A DNA stretch of 64,000 nucleotides, taken from positions 434,001 to 498,000 of the forward strand of contig JADEYG010000001.1 in NCBI GenBank assembly GCA_016906335.1, written 5' to 3'. Source of the DNA: Novakomyces olei. Lineage: Eukaryota. Position numbers and translations under genes: made by a program. The notes beneath the pieces are model-generated. The model ran no database searches, was not told the origin of the DNA, and saw only the letters and a list, made by a program, of their open reading frames with translations. This document shows positions 26,328 through 62,253 of the stretch, piece by piece (the stretch's first letter is position 1; each line of letters opens with the position of its first letter).

Positions 26328-29300
26328 CTATGACGTCTCAGCTTCAACACCATTCTCCGCTTCCGCCACACCAGTCTCAGTCTCTTGCGGCTCAGCCGTG
26401 CCTTGTTCAGTCACAGGATGAGCATTGTCTTTTTCATTCTCTTCAATGAGCAAATCGTTCGCCAGAGACTCTGGCACGTCCGTCAAGTTCCATTCTGTGA
26501 AAAGCTCAGGCTCCTCGTCAGGCGCTACCAACAAATCCGCCACTCTCTTACGATTATTCGCTACTAAATCTGCCTTCCACGACTTGAGGATCCGCGAAAA
26601 AGATTTAGGAGCAAAAGTGAGACTAAACAGCCCCGCTTCAGCAAACCGGTTGGTCTGCTCCAAAACCTTTAAACAACCGTCCACATCGTGCAGCAGCCAA
26701 GCGCTTATGAAGGCATTATTATAGACTCCCTGAGCGAGCGCTTCCTGCCGGCAAAGCTCGAGTCCCTCAACGTCGTTTGTGCTGGAGGCAAAAAGTAACA
26801 TGGATCCGAGGTCCTTGGCATTGTAGAAACATTCTCGAGCAAGTTCCAGGTTCCAGGCAGACATGGCAGCATCGCCCACCGTCTTCCATTTAGCTTCAAT
26901 CTCGGATTCACGTGCTAATTCAACAGCTAATTCAAGGTTGCCCAGAGCAAGAGCAAGTTCAAACCGATGCTCTGCGTCCGTTGTGACCTGCAACGCCAGT
27001 TCCGTGTAGCCCTGAGCCTGGAGAAATCGTGAAACAATGCCACGCTCTTCCTCGGGAATTTTTTGCAAAAGCTCTTGTGCTAAATCCATATCGCCACGAA
27101 GCACTACTGTCTGATACTCGATCAAAGCCAGACTGAGCCGGTAGGAAACGAATTTGTGGGCCTTATTGACCAAGTAAACTCTGCCGTCTCGCGGCAAATA
27201 GCCGACTACAAAGAGCGGCTGGTCGAAATTGGCCACTGTCTTTACCTGGCCACCTACTATATAATTCAAACGGTTGGATTGCGTAGTATACACAAAGCAA
27301 TCACCGATCCAAGTGCCGGAAATTACCGTGTCCTCCACGTCAGAAATGGCCTCGAACGCGTCCTCATAGCCCTCTTCGTCTGGACATTAGTTTGTTGATA
27401 ATTAAAAGTAATACATAAAATAAATATAAATACAAATATAAATCTATTTCCGAAATACTTCTGCTTCACTTACTTTCAACATCTTCATCAACTGCATCCG
27501 GATTGTACTTTAGAATATAGAACGAATCCGTGCAAACAACGGCACAGAGTGTCGATTCGGACCAGTAAACATTACGAGCGCCTGCAACTTCAATAATCCG
27601 CACTAGCCGTCCGGTGTCCCAAGTGTAGAAAGCCACAAACTCTCGGCCTTTTAGTCCAATCAGCTTTCCGCCCCACAATTGCTCGCTTTCAAAAGGCAAA
27701 TCGATGACCAACCCGCCTCCTGATCCTGAGCCTGCGTCCTTAAAGTTGCGGAGGACGCGTACACTAGTAGTCGTGTCACGAATAGCATACTCGGTGGAAG
27801 AATTGGCAGACCAACCAAAATCAAGAGCGGGTCCAAAAGCCATATTTCTCCAGGCCAAAGCAGTATAGATAATATACTCGCCATCTCCACACACAACGAC
27901 AAAACGGCCATTGGGCGAATGCTTCAAAAAATGAGGATAAATTTCAGAGGAAGCAACATCTTTGACGGGCAGTGTAAGTTGAGCTCCGTCCTGTAAATCT
28001 TCACCGCTATTACCAGCTGGTGCCTTTATTATAGCAGCCTGAATATCCATATGACGGGCCCATACAAGTTTGCCACTAGCGTCCATACTAACAGCAGGTT
28101 CTTCACTGCCGATTTTAAACACTGTAGAACCCTCGTCGAAACCAATTGCAATATTGTTGCTTCCCCGGAGATAGGCTACAGCCCAAGCACGTTCTAGACC
28201 ATAATTTATAGTCTCCTCAAGGCGGTAGGTGGTAGAGTGCCAAATCTTTACGAGTCCATCCTCTGCGCCACTAATAATTAGAGGCAGTTCTGGGTGGAAA
28301 ACGGAGAAGGAAACATTGTTCGAATGGCCCTCGAGCACCTGCACACAGGCTTTCGTTTGATAGTCCCATATTTTAATGAGCTTATCGTCACCAGTAGTCA
28401 CGAGGTAAGGCTTATCGTTGCCATGGTAATAGTCCACGTAATTCACGCCCTTTTCATGAGCATCGAGTGTGAAATTAGCTTGCGCGGAACCTAAATTCCA
28501 GACTTTAACCGTACGATCTAAACAGGCTGAAGCAAAAGTGTTGGGGTCTTTAGGGTTAATCGCCAGCGACATTACAAAGTGAGCATGACCCTCGTACGTT
28601 TGCACTAGCTTCCAGTTTTGCTCCCAATTCCAACACCGGACTGTCATATCATCCGAGCTCGTCAGGACAAACGGCTGCGTTGGGTGAACTGCCAGTGCCC
28701 GCACATAATCGGGGTGAGCTTCAAACGAAGTTACCCTTTCCCCAGTATTGTAATTGTACACGCGCAACTGGAAATCATCGGCTCCACAGACGAACCAGTT
28801 CCTGCGTGCAATAAACTTGCACGCACGGATAGGAACGTCCGTGAGCTCGAACGTCTTCACAAGCAGCTAAACCGTTAGTCTTGATTATTTTATTCCAAAG
28901 TATCTTCTTTGCATGGTGGAGGCTGCTTTAGACAGGGGACTTGAATTTGGTCTCTCAATTCTTATTTTGACGTATGCATTTTGGTTTTATTTTATCTTGA
29001 AAACATCTCGATTCTGATGCCAAATTTGATCTTTTTACCAACGGCTTTTTCTTATTTTATTCATTTATTTATTTTTTTGGTTATTGTTTGGCGTTGATGC
29101 GTTTGTTTGTTAACCGTGTCCCTTCTCTCTTCGTCCAATTCAATTCAAATTTTCACTTCATACCTGAGTCTCGTGGTTCCAAATGAACACTTGTCCATTA
29201 TAAAGACTGGAAATAATCCACGGTTCCGTTGGATGAAAATCGATGGCCTTTACGCGATCAGACCGCGCTAGCAATTTTCTCTACAATTGAGCAACGAATT

Positions 29301-33522: not shown

Positions 33523-35339
33523 TCAATCACGCCGGAACCACTTTGCATACGCCAGCAGGTAGTATAGCCGAAAACTCTTGAAAGCAAACTCGTCTTTACG
33601 CAAATCTTGAGGGTAATCTGCTCCCAAATCAACGGCAGCTGCCAATCCCGAAATTATGGCGGTCTCATGTGCATTGACTACGGTCCATGAACCGGCAAAA
33701 CGAGTATTACTTTTCCCCTGCAAAGTCCAGACCCACGGTACGACAAAGATGTAGTGAGAAATAGAGTGGCAGAGCTGGTGCCACCAGTCCTTGCGAATAA
33801 TTTTGTCAGGATCAATTTCATCGATGGACCACAAATGCGAATCGCGGTCTTTATTCAAAAAAATTGTTTGGAAGACATGACGATCAAATTCAATGTCTTT
33901 AGGAAACTGCGACTGGTAATTTGTTGTATCAAAGCACATTTCCAATTTGCTGCGATCTTCATCGTATTCTTTAATATAATACATTGGTTTAAAATTGTGC
34001 TGTGCAATTTCGCACCTGTGACTTTGATCGACTCCGTTTAGTGAAGTGACGGCTTGTGCTTCATTGTAATCATTTTCATAGTGTCGCCTCATATAGTTCG
34101 TATCGTTGTGCGTGACCGTAATATCGTCACTAAACTTTGCGTGCTTCAAAATGTTTTTCTCTTTCCAGCTAGCGTTCGGCTCGAGGATTTTGCAGGCTGC
34201 ATCGGCCAGCACACACAGAACAATTTCGTCGTACTCTTCTTGTACGTTGTTTGCTTCATAGTAATCGTCATTCACATTGCTATTGTTGCTGCTATTGCTC
34301 TGTGCAACCGACGACTGTTCCTTCCGTTGGCCTCTAGTCGACAAGGAAACCCTAACCCCCTTTCCATCACGTAAGACAGACGTGACCATAGTGTTTAATC
34401 TGACTTGAGCGCCCTGCGCTTCCAAATCACGTCGCCAAGCCGCGTAAAAAGCCCGTAGCTCCGGGAAGACAATCATTGGAGGGTAATTGCTGACAATACT
34501 CGCCTTGTCCCCCGGGTACCACATCCCGACTGTTGGCGAAGTTACCAGCCGTTCCAGAATAATCGCTGGCACTTGTGGAGTCGCGTTGCCTGTACCCAAA
34601 AACAGGGCCACCATGGGCAAGGCCACATCGTTTATAAACTCTGAGGAGAACATGAAAAGCTTGAGCAGTAATTGCAAGGGGTAAAGCAGCCAGAGCACTT
34701 CGGTCCAAGAGATGAATCTCAGCATTCTATGGAACCTTTTGGCTTCGGCTGCGTGACGAACGAGTAGTTTTGTAGGGTAAACGTTGGTCCAGAAGTGCTC
34801 GTCTTTTCCGAAACTGACCTGTAAATCTACAGGGCTCGCATCGAAGCCCTGCTTTTTGAACATTGCCATCGTATGGTGGAAGATATAACTCCCGCCTTGG
34901 ACCCCCTGGTTCAGCCAACCGGCCCCGTAACGCGACTCATCTATCGGTATGGAAAACGCCTGACCACCACAGTAATCGTTGCTTTCGACGAGCGTGACCT
35001 TGGGGTATTTTGTTAGCTAAAGATGCGAATAAAAAGATTATCATTTTTCCCCAATTCATTTCGATCAGCTCTGCACAATTTTTCAGCACAATTTTTTCAA
35101 TTCAAATTGATTTCCTTTTGGATTTATTTCAGCCGATCTTTATTTTTATTTAATTATTTAATATCATATCGCTCGAGATGGGCCGACTTGCCTGGAACTT
35201 TTCCGGGTGCTGTGAAAGATGGTACGCACAAGACATTCCCTAAAATATTAATCAAAGTGCAGTTTTTAAAACAATATTTTAAACTTACTGCGGCACCTGC
35301 GCCGACAACGAGGACGCGTTTAGGCCGTGGAGCTGCCAT
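33523..35339 (-). CDS. FAD-dependent oxidoreductase (amine-oxidase-like), 3 exons
   Basis: RVLVVGAGAA|GMSCAYHL..|VTLVE...CGG dinucleotide-binding fold; C-terminal FAGSW..HE.AIISGLAAA.DLG; introns 35240-35288 and 34999-35191 (GC-AG). Confidence 0.85.
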
Positions 35340-36388: not shown

Positions 36389-37172
36389 CTACAAATACCG
36401 CGTTTCATCAAACTCCTCAATATCAAGCTTTAGCGACCGAGACTCCTTATAGCTTGGTGTTGGTGCTGTAGGATTCTGTTGCAGGTAGAACCGTCGAAGC
36501 AGCACAATTGCTTCCTTGCGGAAAAACCCTGGGTATGCCGGGTATCCCTGGTCAATGCTATTATGGTCACTATTGATTTTGAAAACGCTACCGCAACCGC
36601 CAAATCGATCGTTTCCACAGCCGAAAAAGACAGATCGTATATGAAGTTGTCTTAATGCGGCTGCACACATGAGGCAAGGTTCAACAGAGACATAAAGATC
36701 AGTTTCCTTGAACACCTCTGGGCTGTACGTCTTTAATATTTCTTCGATTGCTACAATTTCTGCGTGGCGAATTCCCTGTTATTAGCTACATTCGGCTATA
36801 GGCAAGAAAATTTGCGCTAAACAAAAAGGAAAGAATTAAAGAATTAAATAAACATGTCGCACAATTGAACTAAACTAAATTAAATTGAACTAAATTAAAT
36901 TAAATTAAATTAAATTAGATTAAATTAATAAAGAACTAAACTCGAGAATTGCATAGTTATGGCCTTACACACAACGAGCGATTAGTATCGTTTTTCCCAG
37001 TTCCAATTACTGTGCCATTATTTACAAAGACGCAGCCAACAGGCACTTCGTTCGCGTCTAATGCGTCTTCCGCCTAGCGAGTTAATTCAAGTAATACGAT
37101 GCCAGCATTACCAAAGCAACCGCTTTTCCCATATGGTGCCAGTGATCTTGATTTTCTCGTACAGCCAAGAGT
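36389..37172 (-). CDS. TAD2: tRNA adenosine-34 deaminase catalytic subunit (3 exons; appears to be the C-terminal half of a fusion gene)
   Basis: EVPVGCVFV; RHAE; VEPCLMCAAAL; GCGNDRFGGCGSV; LLRRFY..NP.AP; introns 37074-37111 and 36776-36968. Confidence 0.93.
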
Positions 37173-37204
37173 CTTTTGATCAGATTTCGTATAGTACTGC
37201 GCAC

Positions 37205-37866
37205 TTACGATTCTGACTGTCCACCCCCCGTGTTCTCCTTGTCCTTATTGCCAGAGACCTTTCCGAGTATGTGTGCTACCACCAATCCTGCAGCCGCGTC
37301 CACCTGCTCACTGTCTTCGTTGGGGAGAACGAGGTCGGCCGATTTTCTTGTAGTCTCGGCAATCTCATCGCCGGGCTTACTTTGCTCCAAATATTTGGTA
37401 ATACTTGATCGGACGAGAGAAAAGTCTGTCCCATCGCCACAGTCACGCAGCAGTATCCGTGCTAGCCTTATATCCGCATCTGCAGCAATAAACAAGGCAA
37501 AATCGTAATGCTTTAGCAGATTAGGAGCCAAAGCCAGATTGCCCACTATTAAAACAACACGGGGCTCACTGCACCCAGCAAGGGCCTCGAGCGACCGTTC
37601 GAGCAGCGTAAAGTCTTTATAATTAGAGGCAAAAGACCAAAATAAATGTGAGTAAAATGAGCTGGCAGTACGGTACCCGTAGACTCCAAGTCTTTGCCTG
37701 GACTGACGAATTCGCAGAGCTCGAGTGTCGCTATTGCACCGGGACCAAGTGTCTCGATTTCTCTCACTATTTTGTTGGCGACGCGCGTCTATTAAAGTTA
37801 ACATGGAAATTTTTAAACGACTACTTTTCCCGCCGCAGTGGCGCCGCCAATGCCGACAATCAGCAT
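37205..37866 (-). CDS. Uridine-kinase-like P-loop protein (Das2-like), 3 exons
   Basis: MLIVGIGGATAAGK|T Walker A; DFTLL; ALFIAADADIRLARILLRD; ADLVLPN; introns 37789-37824 and 37615-37676. Confidence 0.8.
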
Positions 37867-38097: not shown

Positions 38098-39744
38098 ATG
38101 GAAGAATTGGTGCAACAGGTACGCAGCAATTGAAGTCGTTAGGGCAGATTTACTCACAATTTTAGTTGGAAGCAGATGAGCGGGTAAAAGTTGCGGGCAT
38201 AGATGTTGATGGAATACTCCGTGGAAAGATTATGCTCAAGGACAAGTTCCTCTCTGCGTGTAAAGGCGATGGGTTCGGATTTTGCTCCGTCGTGTTTGGT
38301 AAGAAGCTGCTCGTGTACAATTCCAATCGTGGATCAATCAACTGAGCCTGAACCGTAGATTTTTGGCGGTCGTTTATTAGTCACAATTATGTTTACACGA
38401 CTTGCCTGGTTTGGCTTGACTTGCTCTGATTGACCTGTTTTGTCTGAAGATTTATTTTGCAAGTATTTTACAGTCCACAATTCGCAATGCGCTTTTCAAG
38501 GCACTGACCCTACAGGCTGGGACATGCATGATTCGATGTATGGACGCGAATTACTCGTATCGAACGCAGAGAACGGGTACCGTGATGTAATTGCGCGGAT
38601 CGACACGAAGAGTATACGGCGCATACCATGGGAGGGCAATATTCCTCTCTTTCTCGTGTCATTTAACGATGCTTTAACTGGCGATCCGATAGCCGCTGAT
38701 CCACGCAATTTATTGGCTCGAGCCTGTACGGATCTGGGCGATGTTAAAGCAATGGCCGGAGTCGAACTTGAATTCTTCAATTTTGAGGAGACTCCTCGCT
38801 CACTCGAGCAGAAACGGGGCATCGGCCTTGTGCCTATGACTCCGGGAAATTTCGGGTACTCCCTACATCGGCCCGCGTCCCAGCAAGATTTCTTTTACGA
38901 AATATTTGATCAGTGTCTTGCGTTTGGAATCCCTATTGAGGGCTTCCATACAGAGACAGGTCCGGGAGTTTATGAGGCAGCTCTACAGTTTTCCGAGGCC
39001 TCTTTAATCGCAGACAGAACAAGTCTTTTCAAAATGTCGGTTAAACAGCTGGCTTTGAAACGGAACTTGATCTCCTCATTTATGGCTAAACCTCATAATG
39101 GCTTGGCCGGGTGTTCTGGGCATATACACATTTCCCTGATGCAAAACGGACGCAATTTATTTGCTCGCGACTCGCTTGATTCAAGTGCCAACGTATGGGA
39201 AGACGTCCGTGGCCTCAGTGACTTGGGGCGTCAATTTTTAGCGGGTCTCTTGGACGCTCTAATGGACATTATGCCCATGTTTGCTCCGACTGTTAATTCA
39301 TACAAGAGACTAGTAGAGAATTTTTGGGCGCCCGTGACTGTTTCGTGGGGCCTGGAAAACAGAGTTGCGTCTATCCGACTCATAACGCCGCCTACTTGCA
39401 AACCGGAAGCGACTCGTATTGAAGTTCGAACGCCCGGTGCGGATGTAAATGTTCACTATGCTCTGGCTGCTATAATTGCTGCCGGCCAAAGAGGCATTCA
39501 AAAGAGAATGGAACTGACTCTGCCTCCGCTGGACAAGTCTGGTAAAGATTTGGCCCGGGCCCAGAGGCTACCTCGGACTTTGCAAGAGGCAACTTCTCGA
39601 ATGGCCAGTCCAAAATCTGTAGCCAGAGAGCTTTTCGGTGACGATTTTGTTGATCATTACTGTGGTACACGTGAACACGAAGTTCGGTTATGGAACGACT
39701 ATGTCACTGACTGGGAGGTTAAACGATACATTGAGACTGTTTGA
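38098..39744 (+). CDS. Glutamine synthetase-like gamma-glutamyl-amine ligase (GSI-like, 460 aa), 3 exons
   Basis: AGIDVDGILRGK; GVELEFF; HTETGPGVYE; FMAKP...GCSGHIHISL; NSYKRLVENFWAP; ENRVASIR; RIEVRTPGAD; introns 38119-38165 and 38299-38515. Confidence 0.92.
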
Positions 39745-40686: not shown

Positions 40687-43138
40687 CTACCGATCGACCT
40701 GCCTAGTATGAACATCGTCTTGGATCTTGGACACTGGAGCACAAGATGGCTCTGGCGCAGTTTGCACAATAGACATCCGCCTGTCAACAAAAGGCAGCCA
40801 TAATCCAACTGGTCCAGCGTATTTGGTATGCAAGCTTGTATCGTCCCTTGCATCCGGAGCATAATCAACATCCTTACCCGCATCGATGTACCGCTGAGTA
40901 ATGACGCTGGTAATAAACTCTACAATATGCCACTGCGGCCAAACCCCCTCCCAACTCCGGATTTCTGGCTGCTTGTAATCATAAGCAAAAGCACCGGTAT
41001 CTGATTTAGCTTCCTCTTCAGTAACGCAGGAGCCCTGCTTGCCCTTGGCAGAGTAGTCAAACTTGTGAGCGTGTGGGGTATAGCCGGCAATTGTAGAACT
41101 GACGGCAGAAGATCGAGCATTGGTCCCGTTCATTAGAGCAGTAAAGAGCGAAGCGTCATCCTCACCGCCGTAGAAATCGAGGCCGGTGGACGAGGATCTG
41201 ATACCGCGAAAGTCCAGAGTGGAATCAGCACGACTGACGTTGTAGACGTTGGCAGTATTGCTCGATGGCGATTTAGGGATAAGCATTTGCTGAGACGAAG
41301 AGTTTCTGTTTAACCTTTTCCCCGGAGAATTGGCGGGCATTGAAGAGTCCATCAGTGACGAAGGAGCCAGAGAGTAGACAGAGTCCTGAGCGGCAGTCAT
41401 GAGCGGCCGAGTGGGAGGCGAAGCTGTAGGAGCAGCTGCAAAATTGTTGAGCTGGTCTTCAGAGGCTAAAGAGCCACGGCGGTCAACGACAGCGTAGCGG
41501 TACAGCCGTGCTTGGTGAGAGTAGAGAGCGTTTTGTATGGGCTCTGGGACCATTGCAACAACAGAGTTCTTGGGCACAAGGATCCTGCCCACGAGGCAGT
41601 CGCTGCGGGTCAGTTTAGGGATGAGTAAAGGCCTTGCGGATAAGCTGCCCAGACTGCCAAGCTCTGGATCGCGGCAGCGTAGTAGAGCAAAGTAGAGACA
41701 GGCAGTTGCCAGCTGCCTTGTAACGAGGTACTGGGCAAGAACGTGCTCAGACAGCTCTGTGTTTACGAGATCCTCTGTCAGCACTGGAGCCGGCTGCCTC
41801 AGACTCGAACTCGCGTCGTCGCTAGTCTCGAGCTTTGTAGTGGCCTCGCTCCGCTTGTCCTTTTCCTTGTTTGCGTGTCCGCCAGTATTGCTGCTGACAT
41901 TGTTATTGCTGACATTGTTATTGCTGCAACTGCTCTCGCTATTATTGCCCGCACTCGTTCCCGCATCCGTGTCCGTTTCCCCATCAAAGGTGGCAATACT
42001 CGGAGCAGAGTACATTACATACTGAATGTACTCTGCTCCACCGGCAAAGGCCTCTTTGTCCCGCAAATGTGTGAGCATTAGACTCGCAATTGAAGACTGT
42101 GCCTGCATAAATAGCGCAGTCATTCCTTTGTGCGTAGAGGGAACAGAGCTGCTTTTATTGCTCTTGTTTTTTCGAGAGAGCGGGTGCTGCTCTGGTAAAA
42201 GGGCATAGTACAGAGTAGCCAGCTGCTGGTACAGCTCATCCACCATTCGGCCGAAAAAGACGCTCTGCAGACTCGAGGCAACACACGCGTCTACCAGCTC
42301 GTACAGTTCACCGGCTGCCAGAGTCCACGATTGGTCAACGGCACTGTGGTAAACTCCCACTCTTTGCCGGGAAAAGGCGCTCCGTAAACAAGCGTGAGAG
42401 CTCTGTGTATTACGTAACGACCTGCCAAAGATCTTGCCTCCAGTCTGGGTTTGAGAGGAACCCGATCTCAAACTTTTCCGGCTCGAAAAAAGCGCACTCT
42501 TCTGACTCACGTACCCAATCGCGTCCCAGGCCGACCGGATAGCTCCGTCCGCCGACCCGTAGGCCAGATCAAGGTTTAGGAAGCCGTAGAGTAGTCCCTT
42601 ACGCACGGGATTTAGTACTGTTACAGCCGTATGATTGTACCCGGTAATGATATCCGACCAGAAAATAGTCGTACTGTGCTCACTGCCATCTCCGCCTCCT
42701 CCTCCGCCAGCGCCTCCGCCTTTGTTGCGGATACTCAGCCGCTCAAACGCTCGCTCTATATACTTTCTGGGGTCCTTTTGAAACTGCCGCCGCCGTAAAT
42801 AAGGTGGCGTGAGAAGGACCTGCGTGTGCGACGGGATACAGGGGTAAGGATGGTGCAGCCGAGGCCGTATATAAACCCTGCGTGTGTAAGAAAATGGACA
42901 GACAACAAAAGGCCACTTAAAACAGGGCGGAAATATAAAGGGAAAATGGGATAATTGCTCGTGGCTTCAACGGCTCAATTTTCCCCAGGTTTGGCCAATT
43001 GATTGATCCCTTGTGGAACCCATGATAAAGGCAAAACGTATAGTCTCATTACCAGTAAAAAACCGATAGGCACAATAGGAGTACGGCAACGACAAACCAG
43101 GGTGAGAGGATCACGGCTATAGCGCGCTGCCCTCTCAT
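40687..43138 (-). CDS. 758-aa protein with N-terminal membrane anchor, possibly a degenerate cytochrome P450 fold; 2 exons
   Basis: Exon 43053-43138 (MRGQRAIAVILSPWFVVAVLLLCLSVFY) splices in frame (intron 42878-43052) to a stop-free frame 42877-40687 that extends the listed 639-aa ORF. Confidence 0.7.
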
Positions 43139-47749: not shown

Positions 47750-50700
47750 CTATGAATCATTATTCACTTCTGCGAACCACTGTCTAAGCGCAAGAGCAAG
47801 CATTTCCGGCAAAGTCTTCACATCCTGAACGATTAAATAATAGTCAAAGGCAAATTTGGACATGTAAGATTCAATTCGCAGATTCATTTTGCCATTTGCA
47901 TCCGTTTCGTATTGAACTTGATTCATATCGAGAATTGAACACGTTTTGTTTGCGTACAGAGCATCAATAACGACAAAAATAATCAGAATTCGCTCTTCAC
48001 GAGCTTTACGAAGAAGTTTTCGCACCTTTTCATGGTCCTCGTGGACTCCATCAGAAATTATTACACCAAGTTGCCAAAGACCAGTATCGCTGTTACCATT
48101 TGCTTGACGAGCAGTTTGTAGCAATTCTGTGATTTTCTCAATTAATGCAGAAACATTTGTCTGTTCACGATCAAAGCCTAAATGCTGGCACATTTGAGCT
48201 CCGTCTTGTGTGCTTACGCTCTCGCTAAAATCGTGCAGTAACTTTGCTTGCTGATCAAATTTAACAAAAGCGATTTGGCCTGCTTCGAGAGAGGATAAAC
48301 CTTTGGCTAAAAGAGCCATTGACTGAAGGGTTAAATCGGCACTTTTGGACTCCATCATCGATTTAGAATTGTCAACAGCAATCAGCACTTGGTACTGCCT
48401 TTTGCTCGGCTTTGATCGTCTCATCCAGATCTTGTCCCGTTTGAAATTGCTCGCTATATAGGGGATAATTCGTTTTAAATTAATTCTTTTGCCTGTCTTG
48501 TAATCCCCTCTCATTTTTGCCGCTACTGTTGGCTCCAATATGAGTCGAAGCTGCTCTGCTAATTTGAAAGATAAGTCTCTGGTTGCTGATTCCGCAAGGG
48601 TCCAGCGTTGCGTTGCCTCCTGGAGACTTGAAACTTCATGGTCAGAATCATCCAAAGTAGCACTATCATCTGTATCATCCATCTCCAATCCATTTTCTTC
48701 AGTTTCCCCTGCACGCTGACCAATCCGATTTAGAGCCTCGGTGCCCGAGTCAGTCGTGTCGGCCATATTTTCTTCATTTTCTTTATTTCTTTCGGCAGAC
48801 TTTTCAATATTTTTAGAGCTTCCATTTAGTAAATCTTGCTCCCTCTCAGCTTTCTCATCAAGCTTAGAATTATCTTCGTCATCTTCATTTTTGTTATCCT
48901 CGTCTTCACGGCTTTCATGGTCTTGTTTGTCGAGAGCAGATTTGTCCCCAAATTCCGAGTGCTGTACTCGATGATTAGAATTGGTCTCATTTGCGTTCTC
49001 ATCATTATCATTCTTATTTTGTCCAGAATCATCCGGCTCGTCTCCGCTCATCGGTGTTTCGATTACCGCGCTTCGATCAAGCTTTTCCAGTGACTCCGCA
49101 AGCTGCTTTAATTCCTTTTGAAACTCTGACTGTTGCCGATCATTGCTATCTTCAAAGGCCGAATTTAAAGGATCATTGCCTTCTTTTTGTTCGGACGATT
49201 CACCGGATAGAGCTTGGCTCCTTCCTTGTTTGGTTCCAGACTCTTGCTTTTTATCTTCATCTTCACCGTCCTCACTTTCATTGCCATCTTCTGTCTCTTT
49301 AGCATTTTGATCTTGCTCCTCATTCAATTGCTCGTCTGAACCGTTTTCACCTGCTCTCGGCCTCTGAGGGAAATCGTCATCAGCTGAATCCTGCATATTT
49401 TCGTCATTCTGCTGCTTATCATCAGACTGTTCATCTTTATTTTCATGTTGCTCATTATCACCTTCCGCATCACTTTCAACAACGCCTTCATCGTCTATAG
49501 ATTCTCCCATCAATGCTTCTTCTTCTTCTTTGCCTTCATCCAACTCTTCATTCGCTTCTTCGTCTTTGAAATCAATCTCTTTATCCAACTCGGCTTCTTC
49601 AGGATTTATTGCCTCGTCGCCGTCTTCCCCTTCTTGGTCTTCGTCCTCATCCTCGTCCAGCCTTTCGACTTGACTCGCATCTTTATTCTCAGCTTGTTTA
49701 TTTCCTTCTCTTTCTTCTTCGTCTAGTTCTTCTTCGTCAATGCCTTCTTTTTCTCCATTTTCATCGTCTAAATCCTGAGACTGATCATCTTCGTCTCGAT
49801 CATTCTCACCTTGATCCTGCTTTTCATCCTTTGTGGACTGATCCTTATCAAAATCCATTTTATCGATCAAATCTTGGGAATCGTCGCCATTCTCTTGCTC
49901 TGCCTTCTCGTCAGTTTGATCATGAGCACTTTGCTCATTGTCCCACATTGATTCATTTAGCTTCGTTTCCTCATCATCATCAACTTTCCCCATTTCATCA
50001 TCGTGGGACTCGTCCATCTCTTCCAAATCACTTTCTTGATCGGAACCAGAATCGTTTTTTGTATCAGATTTAGTTGAGGCGTTGTCTCCAAAATAGTCGT
50101 CTTTGTCTTTCTCAATGGCCTCATCGCCGCCATTTTCGTCATCGTTTTCTTGGTCTTCTCCTTCTTCTTGCATCATATCGTCTTCGTTGAACTCATCCTT
50201 GTCCACCTGATCCGAAATGTCTTTTGCGTTTTTGTTATCAGCAGCACCAAGACCAAGCCCATTGCCTTCCGCCTCAGTTTCATTAGAATCTGATTGTGGC
50301 TCACAAAAGCCTTTTCTTAACACGACTATAGCCAAACACGATAAATTGTTGAAGCTCGCCAGTAAACCATGTAAGAGGCGATCAAGAAAACGTCGAGTGT
50401 CTTGCAAGAAGGTCAAGTAGGCCTGCAAAATAGGCGAAATCGAGACTATTTGAGCTTTCCACAAGACGTCTCCGCCAGCACGCAAAGAAGAGCTATTCTG
50501 GCCCACTTCAAAGAGGTCAGTGAGTGCATCTGCTGCACTGTTCAGCTTTCGCAGATCAATACTGTTAACGGTCACAAAAGGCTCTCGAAACGAATCTTTG
50601 CGAGCCCCTGTATTTTTTTGATTACTTTCAAATACTTGCAAAACAGAATCTGCAAACTTGCAAACAAGTCTATCAAACTTGCGATTATCAAAAGCGTGCA

Positions 50701-53700
50701 CTGCGTCTTCATGGATGCTGGGAAAATAAAGCTCCACTTCTTCAATCGCAGCTACTCCACAATTCAAGTGCCATTTCAAATGGCTGTTTACCGTGCGAGA
50801 ATGTAAAAGATCCTGGTACGCTGCCAGATGCTCTTGTAGCAGTACTTTTTGCTGCTGCAGTCTATGAAACGAAGCGGCAGAAATAATACAAAACTGATTA
50901 ATCATTCCGCTCACTTCAGTTTGCATAGTCTTCAAATCGCTTTCGATGCACTTGGAAAAAGTCAATACAGATTGGCAGTCGAAGGACTTGTTTGCCGCTT
51001 CAAAAATGGTAGTTATTATGCTAAATATACCAATCGCCTTGCCCAACGCTGTAGAGTACGCATCTAAAGAGTAAAAATACGATTGATCCTGCAAATCCAA
51101 GCTCAGCATTTCCTTTACCGTCGAGTAGAGCCGCTCGTACATGGAAGTAAATTCTTTTCTTGCCTGAGCAACACGAATAGTATCGTCCAGCAGCTCATCA
51201 ATAAAAGACAAGACTGCAGAGGAATCGGAAGCCTTGATATCCTGCGAATGACTCACTGCCAATTCTCTTAGCGGCTTGATTTTTCCAAGACACTTAGAGG
51301 CGAGGGATAGAGTGCCCGGGTAGTCGTGTAATGCTGCTCCGCTAATGAGAGAATAGATTGTAGCCGTGCGCAAATTAGGATCAAGATGGCGAAGGCTTTT
51401 CTTACCGGAATAACCATTCCGGCGCAGAGTTTTCAAACTGTCTGAGAGCAATCGCTGCTTTAGTGTTTTCACGTGCTTAAACTTGGCCACGTGCTGCTCC
51501 GTCTCAAGTGTCGTTGGAGTGCTCGCCTCGAGCTCCCGTGCCCGTTCAACCAGCTTGAATGAGAAATCAATCAGATCATCGTTGCCAGAGTCAAGCTTGC
51601 CAAAACTTTGCATAGTTTTCGCTGTGGCAAATACGTTCAAATGCCGGGGCGATCTATCCGCAATTTGTGCAGATTCTTTAACGAGTCGGAGCGCCAGCTG
51701 GACAGAACCGGCTGAAACCACAAACGAGTCCTCTGCTGCTGGAAACGAAAACTTTTCATACGGTGCAAGTGCCTTCAAATCTGCCTGTTCAAACAAAGAT
51801 TTCACGAGCTGCCCCATGGGATGAAGAACAATCTCGCGTTGCTTGCGCATCATTTTCAATATTTGAACGTGTGATTTATGTGCAGATTCGCGGAGAGCAA
51901 ACACGTTGCGATCGTTCCAGCTGAATAGAGTCACACAATCTTTCATCTGCTTTTTCAATGGCTTCAAGAGACCCTCCTTATACTGGACAACATGGGGCCT
52001 TGCTTGGCTGTAATAATTATACAGAGAGCAGAGACAATCCCAGGTTTTTGACCATTTTTTATTCATCAAATCAAGCTGGCTAATTAGGGTTCGAATCATA
52101 AGCAGCCGCGTCTCAAATTCACACAGCGGTGACTCATCCATGAACGACGATAAAAGAGCAATAAATTCGTCCTCCTCGCTTTGATTATCGCTGTTCATGT
52201 ATCGCTCCCCGTTCAAAATTACAACGTCGTACAATTGAAGCCACCAACAAAAGGCCGACTTTGCCATCTCTTGCTCTTGAAAATCAAGAATGCTTTTCCA
52301 GCTCCCCAATTCTATTTTCCTCCAGTCAATAATGATGCACGAGACGTCGTCTATCAAAGGCTTGGGCGACCATTCCCTGCTCGACAATTCTTGCCAAGAA
52401 CTGAGCAGCGATAAGCTTTTTTCTGCCAAAGTAATAGCTTTCGATAAAGGCTGGTTAGCTGTAGCCATCAAAGCCTCTTGGCAATGGCCAAACATCTCCT
52501 TAACAACTTGATGTTCAGGGAAGGCTTCTTGCAGGGTGGTCGCAAAAGTGAAAAACTTTTCATAAAACTGTGACAATCGTCGCAATTCTTTTCCGTTGAC
52601 ATCAATATAAAAATTTGCATCTGAGCAGGTAAAGCGATCAGCTGTTTCTTCGGCAAAAATAAAGGGTAGACTCCTTCCATTCAACGGCACAAGATTGCCC
52701 TGATTTTCCCAAGCATGACTAGTCTTATTGCTCACTGCTTTTGTTACTTGAACTGCCTTTTGTAGCAGACAAGTAGGGCTTCCCGAATCTTTTGTCTCTG
52801 CTGTAGAGTCAAAAAATACTGCTTGATGTAAGAGGAAAGCTTCAGCATAGGCTTGAGAACTAAAGCCTGTATCCTCGTTCGCATTCGATTCTGTATCTCC
52901 AGTACCGTCATCATTCACGAACTCAGCCAGGATGTTGGATATTTGTAAAGACCGGTCATCTAAAGCGTGATTCCGGAGCTTGAACGAAAATTGGTGCGTA
53001 CTTTTCTTTTCGCCATTTTGAAGGAGCTCCAGAGTCTGCTCGTACCAAGACAATAAACAGTTTTGTGCGATTTTGGAAACTTTGTCTATACGCAGCGCAA
53101 AACAGATACAAAAAAGCTCAAACATACGGTATTCATGAAAAGATTCAAGACCCAAAGTTTCCTCCTCGTGCTTTGAATTATCCAAAAAACGCAAATCGCA
53201 AATTATACGGGGATCAGTATAGTTGTGGAATGACTGATTCAAATTGCCTGACATTAGTCGTAACGATACTCCAGCGTCAAACAGCACCGCCATATTTTGG
53301 ACTGGTAGAGAAATGTCCCAATAATGCTCGGACGTCGCATCCGCCAGCCGTTGCACAAGCGATCTTAGATTAGAATGAATCGTGCCGTAAAACAAACGCT
53401 CCTCCTCATTTCCAATTGATCTTGTCGTCTCTAGTTTGGGTAGATACTGGCATTTAATGATAAAGTCTTTGATATTTGTCATATTATTGAACACCGACTC
53501 GTGCAGTTTGGCCGGGCGAACCGCAGATCTAACATTTTCATGCATAGCCAAAAGCCCAGTCATGGATTCCTTGCTTGCCTGTAGAAATTCGGCAGAGACG
53601 AACAAGTTGGTGTCCAGGGCTTGAAGCGTATTTTCGACGTTATCAACCGATATTAGATCTTGCTTCGCTAGTTTGTAAACGGCGATTTCCATATTGTCAA

Positions 53701-56700
53701 GTTCTGCTGGATCAAAAAAGTGTTGAGGCACACAGCGTGAGATTCCGGCATATGATGAAATTGCAAGAGACGCTCCGACAAAGGCAAACACGTCCGAATC
53801 ATTTTCAGCATTTTTAAGCATTGTTAAATAGTCGAGCGACTTGGCGAGAAGTCTTTTACATGGGTCATCTCCATGCACAGAGTCATCAAGTCGATGTCGC
53901 AATGACTCTGCCAAATATCCATAGTCCTTGATTTCCAAGGACTCGGCCGAATCTACTGAAAAAGCTCCGTAAAAGCAGAAGATCAATTCTAAGCAAAACC
54001 GGAATGCCAGATTGGCGGTAAACTTGGGTAGGCTGACAGCCTCGTCGTCCCCGAGACTCCAGAATTGCGACTTGAAATGTTTGATATACTGTGCGACACG
54101 GTCCATGTTAAATAGTTGCAAGGATTGGAAATCTAAGACCGAGCTGACATCCCATCCATCTTTGAGCAATGAAGAAGGGTAAAAAATATCCGGCGAAGCC
54201 CAAAGCGACTGTGAAGCAGAAAGCAGTTGGCCAGGGTTTTCAAAATTACTCAATTCTGCCGAAATGTTGCTTTCGATATACTGACTTTTCGACAACGCGA
54301 GTTTTCCGACACGAACGGACGCGGAACTCTCCAAAGTTCCGCTGTTAATATAGCACAGTCTTTCAATGCTTTTCTGAGCCATTGAAAAAGATTTCCATAA
54401 CACATTCGCTTCTGGCAATTCTATCGAGCTTGAACTAGACGCTATTCTCTGTGCGACAGTCTCCATCTGCTCCATCCAAACAGAAAGTTGAGGTGCAGAT
54501 TCAGAGCGCTGCTCATGAATAATTTTATAGGCCTTTGCAACCATTGAAATCATGCTGTTGACCACAGACTGCGGGACAAAAACCTCCTCGCATGTTTTGA
54601 GGAAAGCTTGCAAAATCTCAGTCAAATGCAGTGACTGATGATACGCTTCAAATGTGGGAAACGGTTTTGGTGAAAAATGCCTCCACACTCTATAGAAGCC
54701 TTCAAGGTCAAATGAAATTTTGTCGAAATCGATTGTACTTGACCAATGTTTGAATACAGGTTTCATGACCTCTGATCCATGGTTTTCGAGAATAAATTTC
54801 GCCAAACGCAGCAAAGCAACATTCTGGTTTTCTTGATCAATCGTTCGTGTAATCGTACAAAGCTCGTCCGCAAATAACCCGGCCATATTTGACCCTTCAT
54901 GATCGAGTGCATTTCCTGCAACATACTGGCAAATAGTGTCATACAAGTATTCGCTGCTATTCAGGACGCTAGACTTCAATTCCTGGGAAAGGAGTGACAG
55001 GGACTCCGATCGAGATTCAAAATGAAGCCGAATCGAGATCAATTTGTCGAGCAATGATGAAACAGGAATCGCGGCTTTATTGGACTCGCTGCCTCTGGAA
55101 ATAATGCTCGACATAGAATTGAAATAGAGGGGGTTTCCCGATACAAAGGGCCAGACGGTTGAATTGCCCACAGAAAAGCCAGAAAGAATTTTATTAAAGA
55201 TCTCTTCACCAATTTGTACATTTCGCAAGACACCATCGTTCATCTCCATTTTCAGAGCAGAAGAGGCATTCTGTAGCAAGAACTCAATCTCGCTCAGTGC
55301 GAAAGAGTTCAAAATAAATCTTGCAGCTTCAATATCGTCCTTGTTACGATAAATCTGACTGAAAATCTGCAGTTTCGACTGGAATTGCCATTGACATGCG
55401 TCCCAAGTCGAAAGGGGCGCTCGGTGCTTGCTGCGCTCCATATTTTGGTGCGAAAGAAATAACTCCAAGCACCTGTTCCGCATAGCGCGAGACAGCTCGC
55501 CCTTGCTCGGGTCAACGGTCATAAAAAGCCTGAATCCAGAAGCAGCTCTGTACTCCTTTATCGTTCCGTCCGAGTTCGGGTGCTCTGTAAGCTGAAGAGC
55601 TCCATCATCCTCCAACAGAGAATTCATGCGATCTAAGACTGCTGCAGAGCAAAGATTTGCGTGATCGATTAAGACCCATTTTCCTTGCACTAGAGCATCC
55701 AGGAACCGGCTTTCAATCCATTCAAATTGACTAGCTTCGTTACCGCTAGTAACCGCAGTGTCTAGACGATCCAACAACTCCTCCATTCTACTGGAGACCT
55801 TTCCAAATTGATTGAAAGGTTTCTTTTCCCTCAAATAGCCCAGAAGACGGGCGATCCCGTTATTGCTGCTGCCATCAACTTCCCGCAGCATTATCCTTAT
55901 ATTTTCAAGTTCATGAACGGCATCAAGAACCTCAGGCGAATGGCTAGAGACGAAACTTGTGCGTAGCAATGGCAGCATACGAGATATCGTATCATCAGCC
56001 AGATTTATCAGACTCTGCTGCTCATAATTCCCTACAAGATCTAACGAGTCAAATTCCCTTGAAACTTTGATCTCAATCAATTCACTGTTGCTCAAGTAGG
56101 CCAAAGATCTCACCAGGCTCCTGCCATGGGCAGCATCATTGCTCACAAGAATTAGAGGCCACGACATGCTTGTACCAAGAACCATTTTCTCCAAGTAATC
56201 AACGTCAAAATTAGATATATCGCCAAGGCTGAGAGGTGAACACGGCGTATACTGACTCGTATTTCGTGAAAGCTCAACCTTCCCAACCACTATACATTCA
56301 GGGGAGATTGATAGGGTAGGCGGCACTATAGTACCAGGCTTGCTGAATGTGAATCGCTCGTCGTACAGCGTTTGAGCCATCTGTTTGTCCCTTTGAGACC
56401 TCAATCGGGCCAAAACAATTGTTTCAAAGGCTTTAGCACATAGCGATTCATTGCAAGAAACCAGCTGCAGCCAACGAAACGTGTCTCTCAAGTTAAAATC
56501 AAATGGCCGGCCATCTATTATGCTACCAGACAAGCATGCGTTTTCCATAGCTGAAACAAAATCTACAATTGTATCACGAATACTGTCTGCAACAGTGGGA
56601 AAACTTAAGCGTGCAATGTTTTTCAAATCGCCTGCTGATTGATCGTCCATGTAAATGAGTGAAAATCGATTGAGGAAAGATTTTGGCAGCCCCTTGCGCC

Positions 56701-59700
56701 CGCCGCCTTGATGATAAGGGTTCTGAGCTGCAAAGACCTTGAATTGCTGATGGCAGCGAAACGTCCGGTCTAGTTCTGGTATATAAACCTCTCCACGGTG
56801 ATCGAAACAAGCGTTCAGGCCTTCAAGAACACTTTGAGAAGCAAGATTCATCTCATCCAACAGCACCCAGTCTCCACTCTTCATTGCCTTTAAAAAAGCT
56901 GCATCTTTCCACTGCATACTGCCAATACCTTCGCCTTCAGTCGGCGCATCACAGCCAAAAAGGTCCACCAAATCCGTTTGCTCAGACAGGTTGATTCTAG
57001 TGAAGACGTGGCCTGCTGCCTGAGCAATTCGCGAGACTATACTAGACTTGCCGACACCAGGACTGCCTTCAAGAAGAATCGGTTTACGAAGCTGCAAGGC
57101 TCTCAATATTTTAACAGTGTTGAGCCTTGTGCTCAGCGAACCGTTAAAAAAATCAACGTCAAACCCAAAATTTTCCACTCGCGGAATCCGGAAAGAACCC
57201 GCGAGAAAGTAATTCTCATCGTATACGACTGATGCCTGGAAAAGTTCGTCTTCATCTAGATCCTGTACTATTTCCTTCTTCAAAAAAGCGATGCTCTGAG
57301 CCCTAACGGCTTCTGGAGAAAGAGGTTCTCCAGCGCTAGCGATTTTTTGCTGCTCCAACACGCCGAATCCGTCAATGTAAACCAAAAGAGCGCCCTCAAC
57401 AAAGCTTTTCCAGGAATTTTGAAACAGGCCAATATTCATAAACTGTGCCCATGATATTATGTCCCTCAGGGAAATAGGGAAATTAAAAGTATCCGATGCT
57501 AATGATACAAAGTTTTCATGAAACCACAACGCAAATTTAAGCATTGGTTCCGCCCAGTCACAATAACAAGGCGCTAATTTTGATGAAAGAATCATTTGTA
57601 TATCCGATTCATCGAGAGCATTTGGAACCCAGATTTCAGTGAAACGATTCCGCAATGCCGGTGAGAGCTCGCGCTTCCCATAATCACCTCCCGGGTTCAT
57701 TGTTGCAAAGAACCGAAACCCTTCATCAGCCTTCAACGCCAAATCACTTGTGCCCTTTTCCGCTAGTGTTATAGATCTGCTTGGTTCCAGCACGGAATTT
57801 AGTCGCTCAAGTACTGAATCTTCAGCCAGTGAGATTTCGTCCAACAAGAAATAGTTTCCAGTCTCCATCGCAGACACTAAGGGACCATTTGACCATTGGA
57901 ACAGGATCCGAGTTTCCCTTTCGTTTTCGGCAATTTGCTGCAGCAGAGCCAATGACTGTTCAGTATGCTTTAGCGGTTTGCTCCTTTGTTCGCCATATGC
58001 TTTCAATAAATCGTTTTCGTTGTCCACGTTAACATCAAAGATTTGCAAAAAGGAGGAAATGTCCTGCAACATTTTTGAGCGTATCGCGCTTCGGTCGCGC
58101 TTGGGCCTCTGCGATCCAATTACATCACTGGTTTCAAGGTTTTGGTGGCCATTTAGAATAGACAACTCCTTACCATAAATGGCAGCAAATATTTGGATTA
58201 TCGTCGTCTTACCAGATCCAGTTTCCCCCACCAAAAGAAGCGGCTCCTTGTGTTTTATAGCCCTTTCAACCAATACAAAAAGCTTCTTCATAGCTTTTGT
58301 CCAAACGATCTGAGATTCGATTTCATGCAATTCATTATATCTTTTAAAAGCGCCCAAAGCAGAAACATCGTACAGCTTATCCTGATCAATAGAAACACGC
58401 AAACTGTCCTGGATCACAGACTTGACCAATAATCTGTCTTCCGCTGTGCGAGAGCGCTCTCCTAAAAGCATGAAGCCATCGGCAGCCAGCTGCTCTACAC
58501 TTTCAGGCTGCCGACCTCCCCACCGAAACAGGTCTCGAAGCGTTGCAAAACTGTTTTTGGAATCAAATATACGAGTACTCTGCCTTTTCGTCTCCAAATT
58601 TTTATAAACCGTCAGAATCCGCTTTGCATAAGACGGAGCAATTCCGCAGCGCTGAAACAGAATAGTCTCCAACTCATCCTCTGGAATATCATCAAAATGA
58701 AGCTCTATAAACCGGTTTCTAAAGGCCCGAGACAGATGCTTTCGGCCACCATAAAGCCCCGCCGGGTTTTGTGTTGCAAATAGGACAAATTGGTCATGTG
58801 CTTTTACCGTTTCCTGTAACTCTGGTACAAACAGCTCATGATTATCGTCCAAAAGCCGATTCAACGATTCTAGAACGTCACTTGGAGCCAAATTAAGCTC
58901 GTCTAAAATAATCCAGTACCCATTTCGCACAGCATCAAGCAGCAAGCCTTCCTCATATTTGAGAATACCTTGGGCATCCGCAACATAAGATCCCAAGTAC
59001 TCTTGTATATCGGTATGCTCATGGTTATTAATGCGTACCACCTTGTTTCCCGTAATATTGGCAAGATATTCTACCATCGACGTCTTTCCACTCGACGTGG
59101 GCCCTTGTAATAGCACAGGATAGTGCCGACAGCGAATTGCGCGGACGAGATTTAGTAGATTTGACTCAACAAACGGAGTCAATATATAGTCGGGCCTCTG
59201 TAAAACATCAAATGGTCCTACTGGAATTTGATATTGTTTAAATGTAATCATCCCCTCGTGATCCCTACGCACACGATTCCTTAAAAAGTCTTTTGCCCCA
59301 TTGCCAATGTATTCTATAGCCAAATTGTTTAAAACACCACAAGATTTTACATCGAGAACCGTTAAAAAGCACATACAAAAGCCTTCATAAAGGGCTCTTC
59401 GTAGCCCAAATTCAGGCGAAACTTGTACAGCAAACTCTAGAGCCCTGGAAAGAGTTCGTATCGAGTATATAGGCAGGCCTCCAGAGCCATCTTGAAGCGC
59501 TCCTTCCCTAACGAGCGCTTTAGCTTTGGCATACAAGTTTGCAAAGTCGTAGGCTGCTCTTTCATCTCCGAGACATACGTTGAGCAACTTTGATTTTATA
59601 ATGAAAAGCAAATCCTCAAAGTCTTCATCCGGAGAATGGACATAGATTTCTGTAAAATGAGATCTAATTGAAGGTGCAATATTTTTTTTGCCAACATCAG

Positions 59701-61795: not shown

Positions 61796-62253
61796 GTCAC
61801 CTGAAATTTTATTGGACGTGAGGCAGTCTTGAAATGTCAAAATATATTTTGATAATTACACAGCTATAAAAATTATTTTATTTATTTTATTTATTTTATT
61901 TTATTTTATTTTATTTTAATTTATTTCAATTTATTTATTTATTTGTATTTTAATATTAAACTATTTTGTAATTAAATATTCATACTAAATATTACCACTA
62001 GACTGAACCTGTGGCGAGAGTCGTGCCCGCTGGCCGAGCGCTCAAGAGCGGCAGACTGTCGAGCCAATTCCCATACTGCTTTGACCAAAATCGTAATTGG
62101 CGACTAATTTACATCTTATTGATTCTCATATTTGCTCTTTACCACTCTGTCCTCCAACCAAAGAATAGACATTAGATATTCAGTATTTAATATAGGTACC
62201 ACGTAGTCGTACACTTGCAACACCAGGCTGCGCGGTTGCGCGGTTGCGCGGCT

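Follow-up and report, generated by a model that had tools for sequence, protein, structure and literature searches.

Within the 64-kb stretch of DNA analysed here (the window), an open frame that resembles a uridine kinase stops at a TAA on the minus strand, and the first ATG of a Tad2-like tRNA deaminase follows in the same frame. Does this locus encode two proteins, or is the TAA part of an intron, that is, do the kinase-like domain and the deaminase belong to one polypeptide? Tad2/Tad3 is the tRNA adenosine-34 deaminase that makes wobble inosine; Tad2 is its catalytic subunit and is essential. The initial annotation had proposed a fusion of the kinase-like domain with Tad2, and this is very probably right: from its match to known proteins, we read the interval 37866-36389 (-) as a single six-exon gene, the counterpart of fission-yeast tad2, that would encode a uridine-cytidine-kinase (UCK)-like domain fused to a deaminase.

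The stop codon lies inside a consensus splice-donor sequence

On the minus strand the kinase-like frame runs into TCG TAA at 37210-37205, and the TAA (37207-37205) lies inside the hexanucleotide GTAAGT, whose G is at 37208. A branch-like CTGAT is found about 24 bases on from this donor and is followed by CAAAAG, with the AG at 37174-37173; the CTGAT is reported 6 nt before the AAG acceptor (37175-37173). The intron so defined (37208-37173, intron 3 below) is 36 nt long, a multiple of three, so the frame is kept, and the TAA is the only in-frame stop within it. The kinase-like frame stays open from the TAA through the next in-frame ATG (37132-37130, 72 nt past the TAA) and beyond, with no other ATG between. 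Thus, the donor, branch-like site, acceptor, intron length and downstream ATG of the initial annotation all hold at their coordinates on this strand.

The complete gene model is given below in transcript order; the predicted introns are 36, 62, 36, 38 and 193 nt long.

Exon 1, 37825-37866 (-): contains the start ATG (37866) and encodes the P-loop up to GK; the T that completes the Walker A motif GxxxxGK/T lies beyond intron 1, and the motif aligns with the fission-yeast Tad2 P-loop
Intron 1, 37789-37824 (-): 36 nt, GTAGTC...TTAAC...TAG; its removal is needed for GK-T and the next helix, alignable to S. pombe Tad2
Exon 2, 37677-37788 (-): first helix and strand of the kinase-like domain
Intron 2, 37615-37676 (-): 62 nt, GTACCG...CTAAT...AAG; the sole frame-restoring join of exons 2 and 3 found by eye, with an AAG acceptor
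Exon 3, 37209-37614 (-): main body of the uridine-kinase-like domain, matching fission-yeast Tad2 residues 98-192
Intron 3, 37173-37208 (-): 36 nt, GTAAGT...CTGAT...AAG, containing the TAA; predicted to be spliced from its signals and from homology
Exon 4, 37112-37172 (-): linker and beginning of the Tad2 N-terminal helix, with the internal ATG at 37132
Intron 4, 37074-37111 (-): 38 nt, GTAATG...TTAAC...TAG; its removal joins a helix alignable to fission-yeast Tad2
Exon 5, 36969-37073 (-): first part of the deaminase (PF00383, E 5.3e-5 on a 35-aa piece), matching fission-yeast residues 225-258
Intron 5, 36776-36968 (-): 193 nt, GTAAGG...CTAAT...CAG; exons 5 and 6 abut at residues 258/260 in the fission-yeast alignment
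Exon 6, 36389-36775 (-): catalytic core of the deaminase (HAE, PCxxC), C-terminal tail and TAG stop; 63-69% identity to three Schizosaccharomyces Tad2 proteins

Scripted joining of the six exons by coordinate gives 1113 nt, a predicted spliced product of 370 aa; when intron 3 is kept, reading ends at the TAA after 187 aa. Both product lengths are those that had been put forward for the spliced and retained forms.

Nine stop-free, frame-keeping GT-AG pairs are present near the junction, and a consensus donor is found only in the 37208/37173 pair; the donors of the competing pairs are GTGAGC, GTGGAC and GTCAGA. The hexanucleotide GTAAGT is rare (13 copies on both strands of the window), and arithmetic from this count places the chance of its landing exactly on a stop codon at roughly 1 in 10^4 per position. 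A scan of the window with a loose donor/branch/acceptor pattern showed no enrichment (78 observed vs 93 +/- 12 in shuffles), so the scan was dropped as evidence for the splice. As the reference for the splice signals of this genome, we used the evident intron at 27473, whose donor is another of the 13 GTAAGT copies: these 94 nt (27380-27473, minus strand; GTAAGT...CTAAT...CAG) split a COPB2-like WD40 gene into the frames 27466-28866 and 26328-27386.

Several other features of the window surround the gene. A glutamine-synthetase-like gene (38434-39744, plus strand; PF00120, E 4.6e-81) is divergent from tad2, with an intergenic region of about 570-660 bp, depending on the start codon. Long open frames of 497 and 759 codons (33523-35016 and 40687-42966, both minus strand) flank the tad2 region and match no Pfam family at E <= 1e-5. 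An uninterrupted frame of 4701 codons at 47750-61855 (-), with multiple AAA_5 and midasin lid domains (Mdn1/Rea1-like), has no introns in 14 kb, compared with five in tad2, a gene of 1.5 kb. Within intron 5 of tad2, about 70 nt consist of an imperfect pentanucleotide repeat of the AATTT type.

The predicted product aligns end to end with fission-yeast Tad2

At the DNA level the UCK-like domain immediately precedes the deaminase on one strand, collinear and in frame across the consensus 36-nt intron. A tblastn search with fission-yeast Tad2 places its residues 98-192, 225-258 and 260-386 collinearly on this one strand at 37561-37268, 37073-36972 and 36775-36392. The predicted 370-aa product aligns over its whole length with three Schizosaccharomyces Tad2 proteins (168/357, 153/357 and 138/338 residues identical; 47, 43 and 41%), and this alignment takes in the P-loop as well as part of the linker ahead of ATG 37132. 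There, the 11 residues that precede the encoded methionine agree with the fission-yeast linkers at V, EN and H positions. Their codons are in frame with the kinase-like ORF and include no start codon.

The locus might instead have two products. If the TAA were a real stop, it would end a 187-aa kinase-like protein; translation from ATG 37132, either from a transcript of its own or from a bicistronic one, would supply a separate 183-aa Tad2. The fission-yeast-type fusion would then have been split in this lineage, and its N-domain would work in trans. Two observations point this way: Met 37132 lines up with the methionine at which a stand-alone Tad2 (P0009) begins, and P0071, the nearest relative of the kinase-like exon in our searches, is a predicted protein of 211 aa that has no deaminase part. 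However, the gap from stop to ATG is only 72 nt, the stop falls inside the consensus donor of a frame-preserving intron with a branch-like site, and the codons upstream of ATG 37132 resemble the fission-yeast linker, yet offer no place to start. Moreover, P0071 comes from a contig of 1179 nt and ends ...SESAL GK followed by a stop; this end resembles the spliced junction found here and, we infer, would be expected if a gene caller had read into a GTAAGT donor. We consider a two-product locus unlikely.

Removal, retention or recoding of the 36 nt

The signals of intron 3 are not ideal: its AAG acceptor and branch-like CTGAT are less usual than YAG and CTAAC, that is, they are sub-optimal. The other introns of the gene provide the context for these departures. 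Intron 1 is required by homology, so 36-nt introns do occur in this tad2; with introns 1 and 4 (36 and 38 nt) both required in this way and intron 2 ending in AAG, small size and an AAG acceptor are in character for the gene. Intron 3 is thus most simply an ordinary, very short spliceosomal intron and its TAA intronic, an interpretation for which homology and the splice signals argue together.

Weak signals could also be taken as a sign that retention of intron 3 is regulated within the fusion gene, which under some conditions would lower Tad2 output or yield a protein consisting of the N-domain only; the in-frame stop sits at the very start of the intron, so a retained mRNA would be truncated just after that domain. 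However, most short introns contain in-frame stops by chance, an mRNA that retains an intron is usually a substrate for decay and not the source of a product, and the splicing of an essential gene such as tad2 must be efficient. Regulated retention is, in our judgment, somewhat less probable still than two separate products.

Recoding without splicing would leave the 36 nt in the mRNA, with readthrough of the UAA or its A-to-I editing to a sense codon giving a 382-aa fusion. This would suit an in-frame segment with one stop only and has a precedent in the ADAT-dependent editing of mRNA stop codons in filamentous ascomycetes (PMC11156358, PMC4817773). It is very improbable, since the consensus splice signals account for the same facts more simply, the linker is already eight residues longer than that of S. 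pombe after splicing, and the editing described in the cited parts of these reports concerns filamentous ascomycetes during sexual reproduction and is not known to extend to this lineage.

The C-terminal half is a Tad2-type deaminase

The translation of exon 6 contains ..RHAEI.. and ..EPCLMCAAA.., that is, intact HAE and PCxxC motifs, and this exon alone scores 45.6 bits against PF00383 (cut-off 25). A search with exon 6 among longer proteins returned 69 proteins; the best three of the 69 are entries named Tad2, from S. octosporus and S. pombe (386 aa each) and from S. japonicus (365 aa), with 63-69% identity and E-values of 1e-47 to 1e-50, and the next named matches are entries called 'tRNA-specific adenosine deaminase 2'. 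By these motifs and matches, the C-terminal half is a zinc deaminase of the CMP/dCMP type (PF00383), the predicted Tad2/ADAT2 catalytic subunit of Tad2/Tad3. Besides PF00383, two of the three Schizosaccharomyces proteins also have PF00485 (PRK/uridine kinase), a family found in none of the 66 other proteins.

The N-domain is a degenerate domain resembling uridine-cytidine kinases

The Pfam family PRK (PF00485) matches exon 3, which holds 135 of the 187 N-domain residues, with 13.2 bits against a cut-off of 22, that is, below the gathering score; exon 2 scanned alone gave no match to Pfam, and these scans took the exons one by one rather than as the joined domain. The best sequence match of the kinase-like exon in the PDB is 7EEY ('tRNA-specific adenosine deaminase subunit tad2'; E 1.6e-8), with UCK1/2 only slightly behind (about 1e-7). 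In BLASTP, the N-domain is 35% identical to S. pombe Tad2 along an alignment of 100 residues (E 2e-8).

The residues that characterize nucleoside kinases of this family are largely missing. Aligned to UCK2 chains, the window domain retains only R169 among the lid residues of human UCK2; R166 is replaced by Ile, R176 by Thr and Q184 by Lys. Alignment with UCK-like representatives and the fission-yeast domains places a Cys at the position of the catalytic Asp, and the P.YD..H.R uridine hairpin is absent: the region is a gap in the window domain and in P0071 and a degenerate segment in the fission yeasts. The Walker A motif is GKT in the window, as in S. pombe, and GKK in S. octosporus and S. japonicus.

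The architecture is already on record. Liu, Zhou, Ge and Xie (2021; PMC8217354) describe a UCK-like N-domain followed by the deaminase in S. pombe Tad2 and crystallised the N-domain (PDB 7EEY); with the same fusion annotated in three fission yeasts, the earlier view that no equivalent had been described has to be given up. In the parts of that paper cited here, the N-domain (N-SpTad2) is reported to have no kinase activity and to bind neither tRNA nor DNA, and its removal abolishes deaminase activity and destabilises SpTad2/3 (PMC8217354). By analogy and from its sequence, we therefore describe the N-domain as a degenerate UCK-like P-loop domain, a predicted pseudokinase and not a nucleoside kinase. 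The initial annotation had linked pyrimidine salvage to wobble inosine formation through this domain; the loss of the uridine hairpin, the lid arginines, Gln184 and the catalytic Asp, together with the reported inactivity of the S. pombe domain, makes such a link unlikely.

Distribution and origin of the fusion

A search for the same fusion in relatives, as the initial annotation had suggested, finds it in the Tad2 proteins of S. pombe, S. octosporus and S. japonicus. These partners emerged only from the deaminase-side search: when the kinase-like exon was used in a word-based search of longer proteins, none of the 2635 candidates matched at E <= 0.001. An exhaustive HMMER search with the same exon gave 47 matches at E <= 0.001, of which only P0071 is close (E 2.7e-16, 41% identity); the remaining matches are UCK-like proteins with E > 5e-6. 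P0071-P0076 were inspected for deaminase domains. A metagenome scan with the deaminase exon yielded nine fungal Tad2 loci (31-67% identity), and none of the nine has a kinase-like match upstream at E <= 1, with at least 3.7 kb of upstream DNA at six of them and little at L002, L004 and L009.

The N-domain tree contains 35 rows, that is, five Tad2-type domains and 30 of the 46 representatives P0072-P0117 (a length filter of 185-270 aa removed the other 16). In the free tree, the window domain pairs with P0071 (SH-aLRT 94), and this pair joins the fission-yeast domains weakly (SH-aLRT 36) and on long branches. A tree constrained to hold the window, P0071 and the three fission-yeast N-domains in one clade has an lnL 1.26 above that of the free tree and is not rejected (p-AU 0.55). 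A common origin of the fusion in the window and in the fission yeasts is thus compatible with the data and not proven.

Two stand-alone UCK-like predicted proteins from outside the window, P0073 (232 aa) and P0106 (246 aa), group with the Tad2-type N-domains in a weakly supported part of the tree, and P0073 has the P-loop GKK seen in S. octosporus and S. japonicus Tad2. These two may be further split or mis-called tad2 genes.

The position of the source organism was assessed with the histidyl-tRNA synthetase (HisRS) encoded in the window, which shares 61-67% identity with the enzymes of Saitoella, Schizosaccharomyces, Lipomyces and many Pezizomycotina. A tree of 18 HisRS sequences places the window outside the three Schizosaccharomyces species, which form a fully supported clade, and also outside the Saccharomycotina, Pezizomycotina and Protomyces/Savitreella clades; the window falls in none of the starred clades. 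The Tad2 identities (41-47% between the window and Schizosaccharomyces, compared with 56-68% among the three fission yeasts) agree with the HisRS tree in placing the window outside the Schizosaccharomyces clade. The cited part of PMC8217354 states that the N-terminal domain occurs in S. pombe and three other Schizosaccharomyces species only, with the species list given as 'data not shown'. Our comparison suggests that the fusion is older than the genus Schizosaccharomyces as sampled.

Discussion

We propose that the 36-nt intron at 37208-37173 is removed from the transcript to give a mature mRNA for a 370-aa Tad2. Its N-domain, by analogy with N-SpTad2, would serve as a structural module on which the stability and activity of the Tad2/Tad3 heterodimer depend, and its C-terminal zinc deaminase, with HAE and PCxxC intact, would be the catalytic part of Tad2/Tad3 that forms wobble inosine. 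The pattern of conservation suggests that what has been retained is a scaffold rather than a kinase.

A bolder proposal, to which we attach little probability, combines two ideas. The stop-bearing, frame-neutral intron at the exact domain boundary would be a switch, with splicing giving full Tad2 and retention releasing the N-domain alone, which would compete for Tad3 or in some other way adjust the level of active Tad2/3 and, hence, of wobble inosine; separately, the fusion would predate the known Schizosaccharomyces and mark a deeper, unsampled ascomycete lineage.

The single-gene reading has a practical consequence for annotation: a gene caller or a reader that misses introns of 36-38 nt would record a 'uridine kinase' and a short Tad2 in place of one essential gene for tRNA editing. 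For the history of the protein, the window contributes a divergent member, more reduced in form, of a fusion that had been reported from Schizosaccharomyces alone; the new element is phylogenetic only, the architecture itself being known from fission yeast.

Three known systems can be compared with the predicted protein. With the uridine-cytidine kinases (UCK1/UCK2 and bacterial Udk; PF00485), the N-domain has in common the P-loop GxxxxGKT, the DxDxRLxR segment and the C-terminal helix, but it differs from them in having neither the uridine-binding hairpin nor the catalytic Asp, R166, R176 and Q184. With stand-alone Tad2/ADAT2 proteins of the budding-yeast and animal type, the predicted protein shares the deaminase core and the N-terminal helix from the conserved Met onward (45-61% identity to many of them over the last exon); unlike the window protein, these have no N-terminal kinase-like domain. 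The Schizosaccharomyces Tad2 proteins have the same order of parts, that is, a UCK-like P-loop domain, a short linker and then a TadA-like deaminase, at a similar length (365-386 vs 370 aa). In these proteins as in the window protein, an internal Met stands at the beginning of the deaminase helix, HAE and PCxxC are intact, and the UCK lid arginines and Gln have been lost. The window protein differs from them in its overall identity of only 41-47% and in its spliced linker, which is the longer one, as noted above for S. pombe; in addition, the window and P0071 lack a segment of about 16 residues that the fission yeasts have in place of the uridine hairpin.
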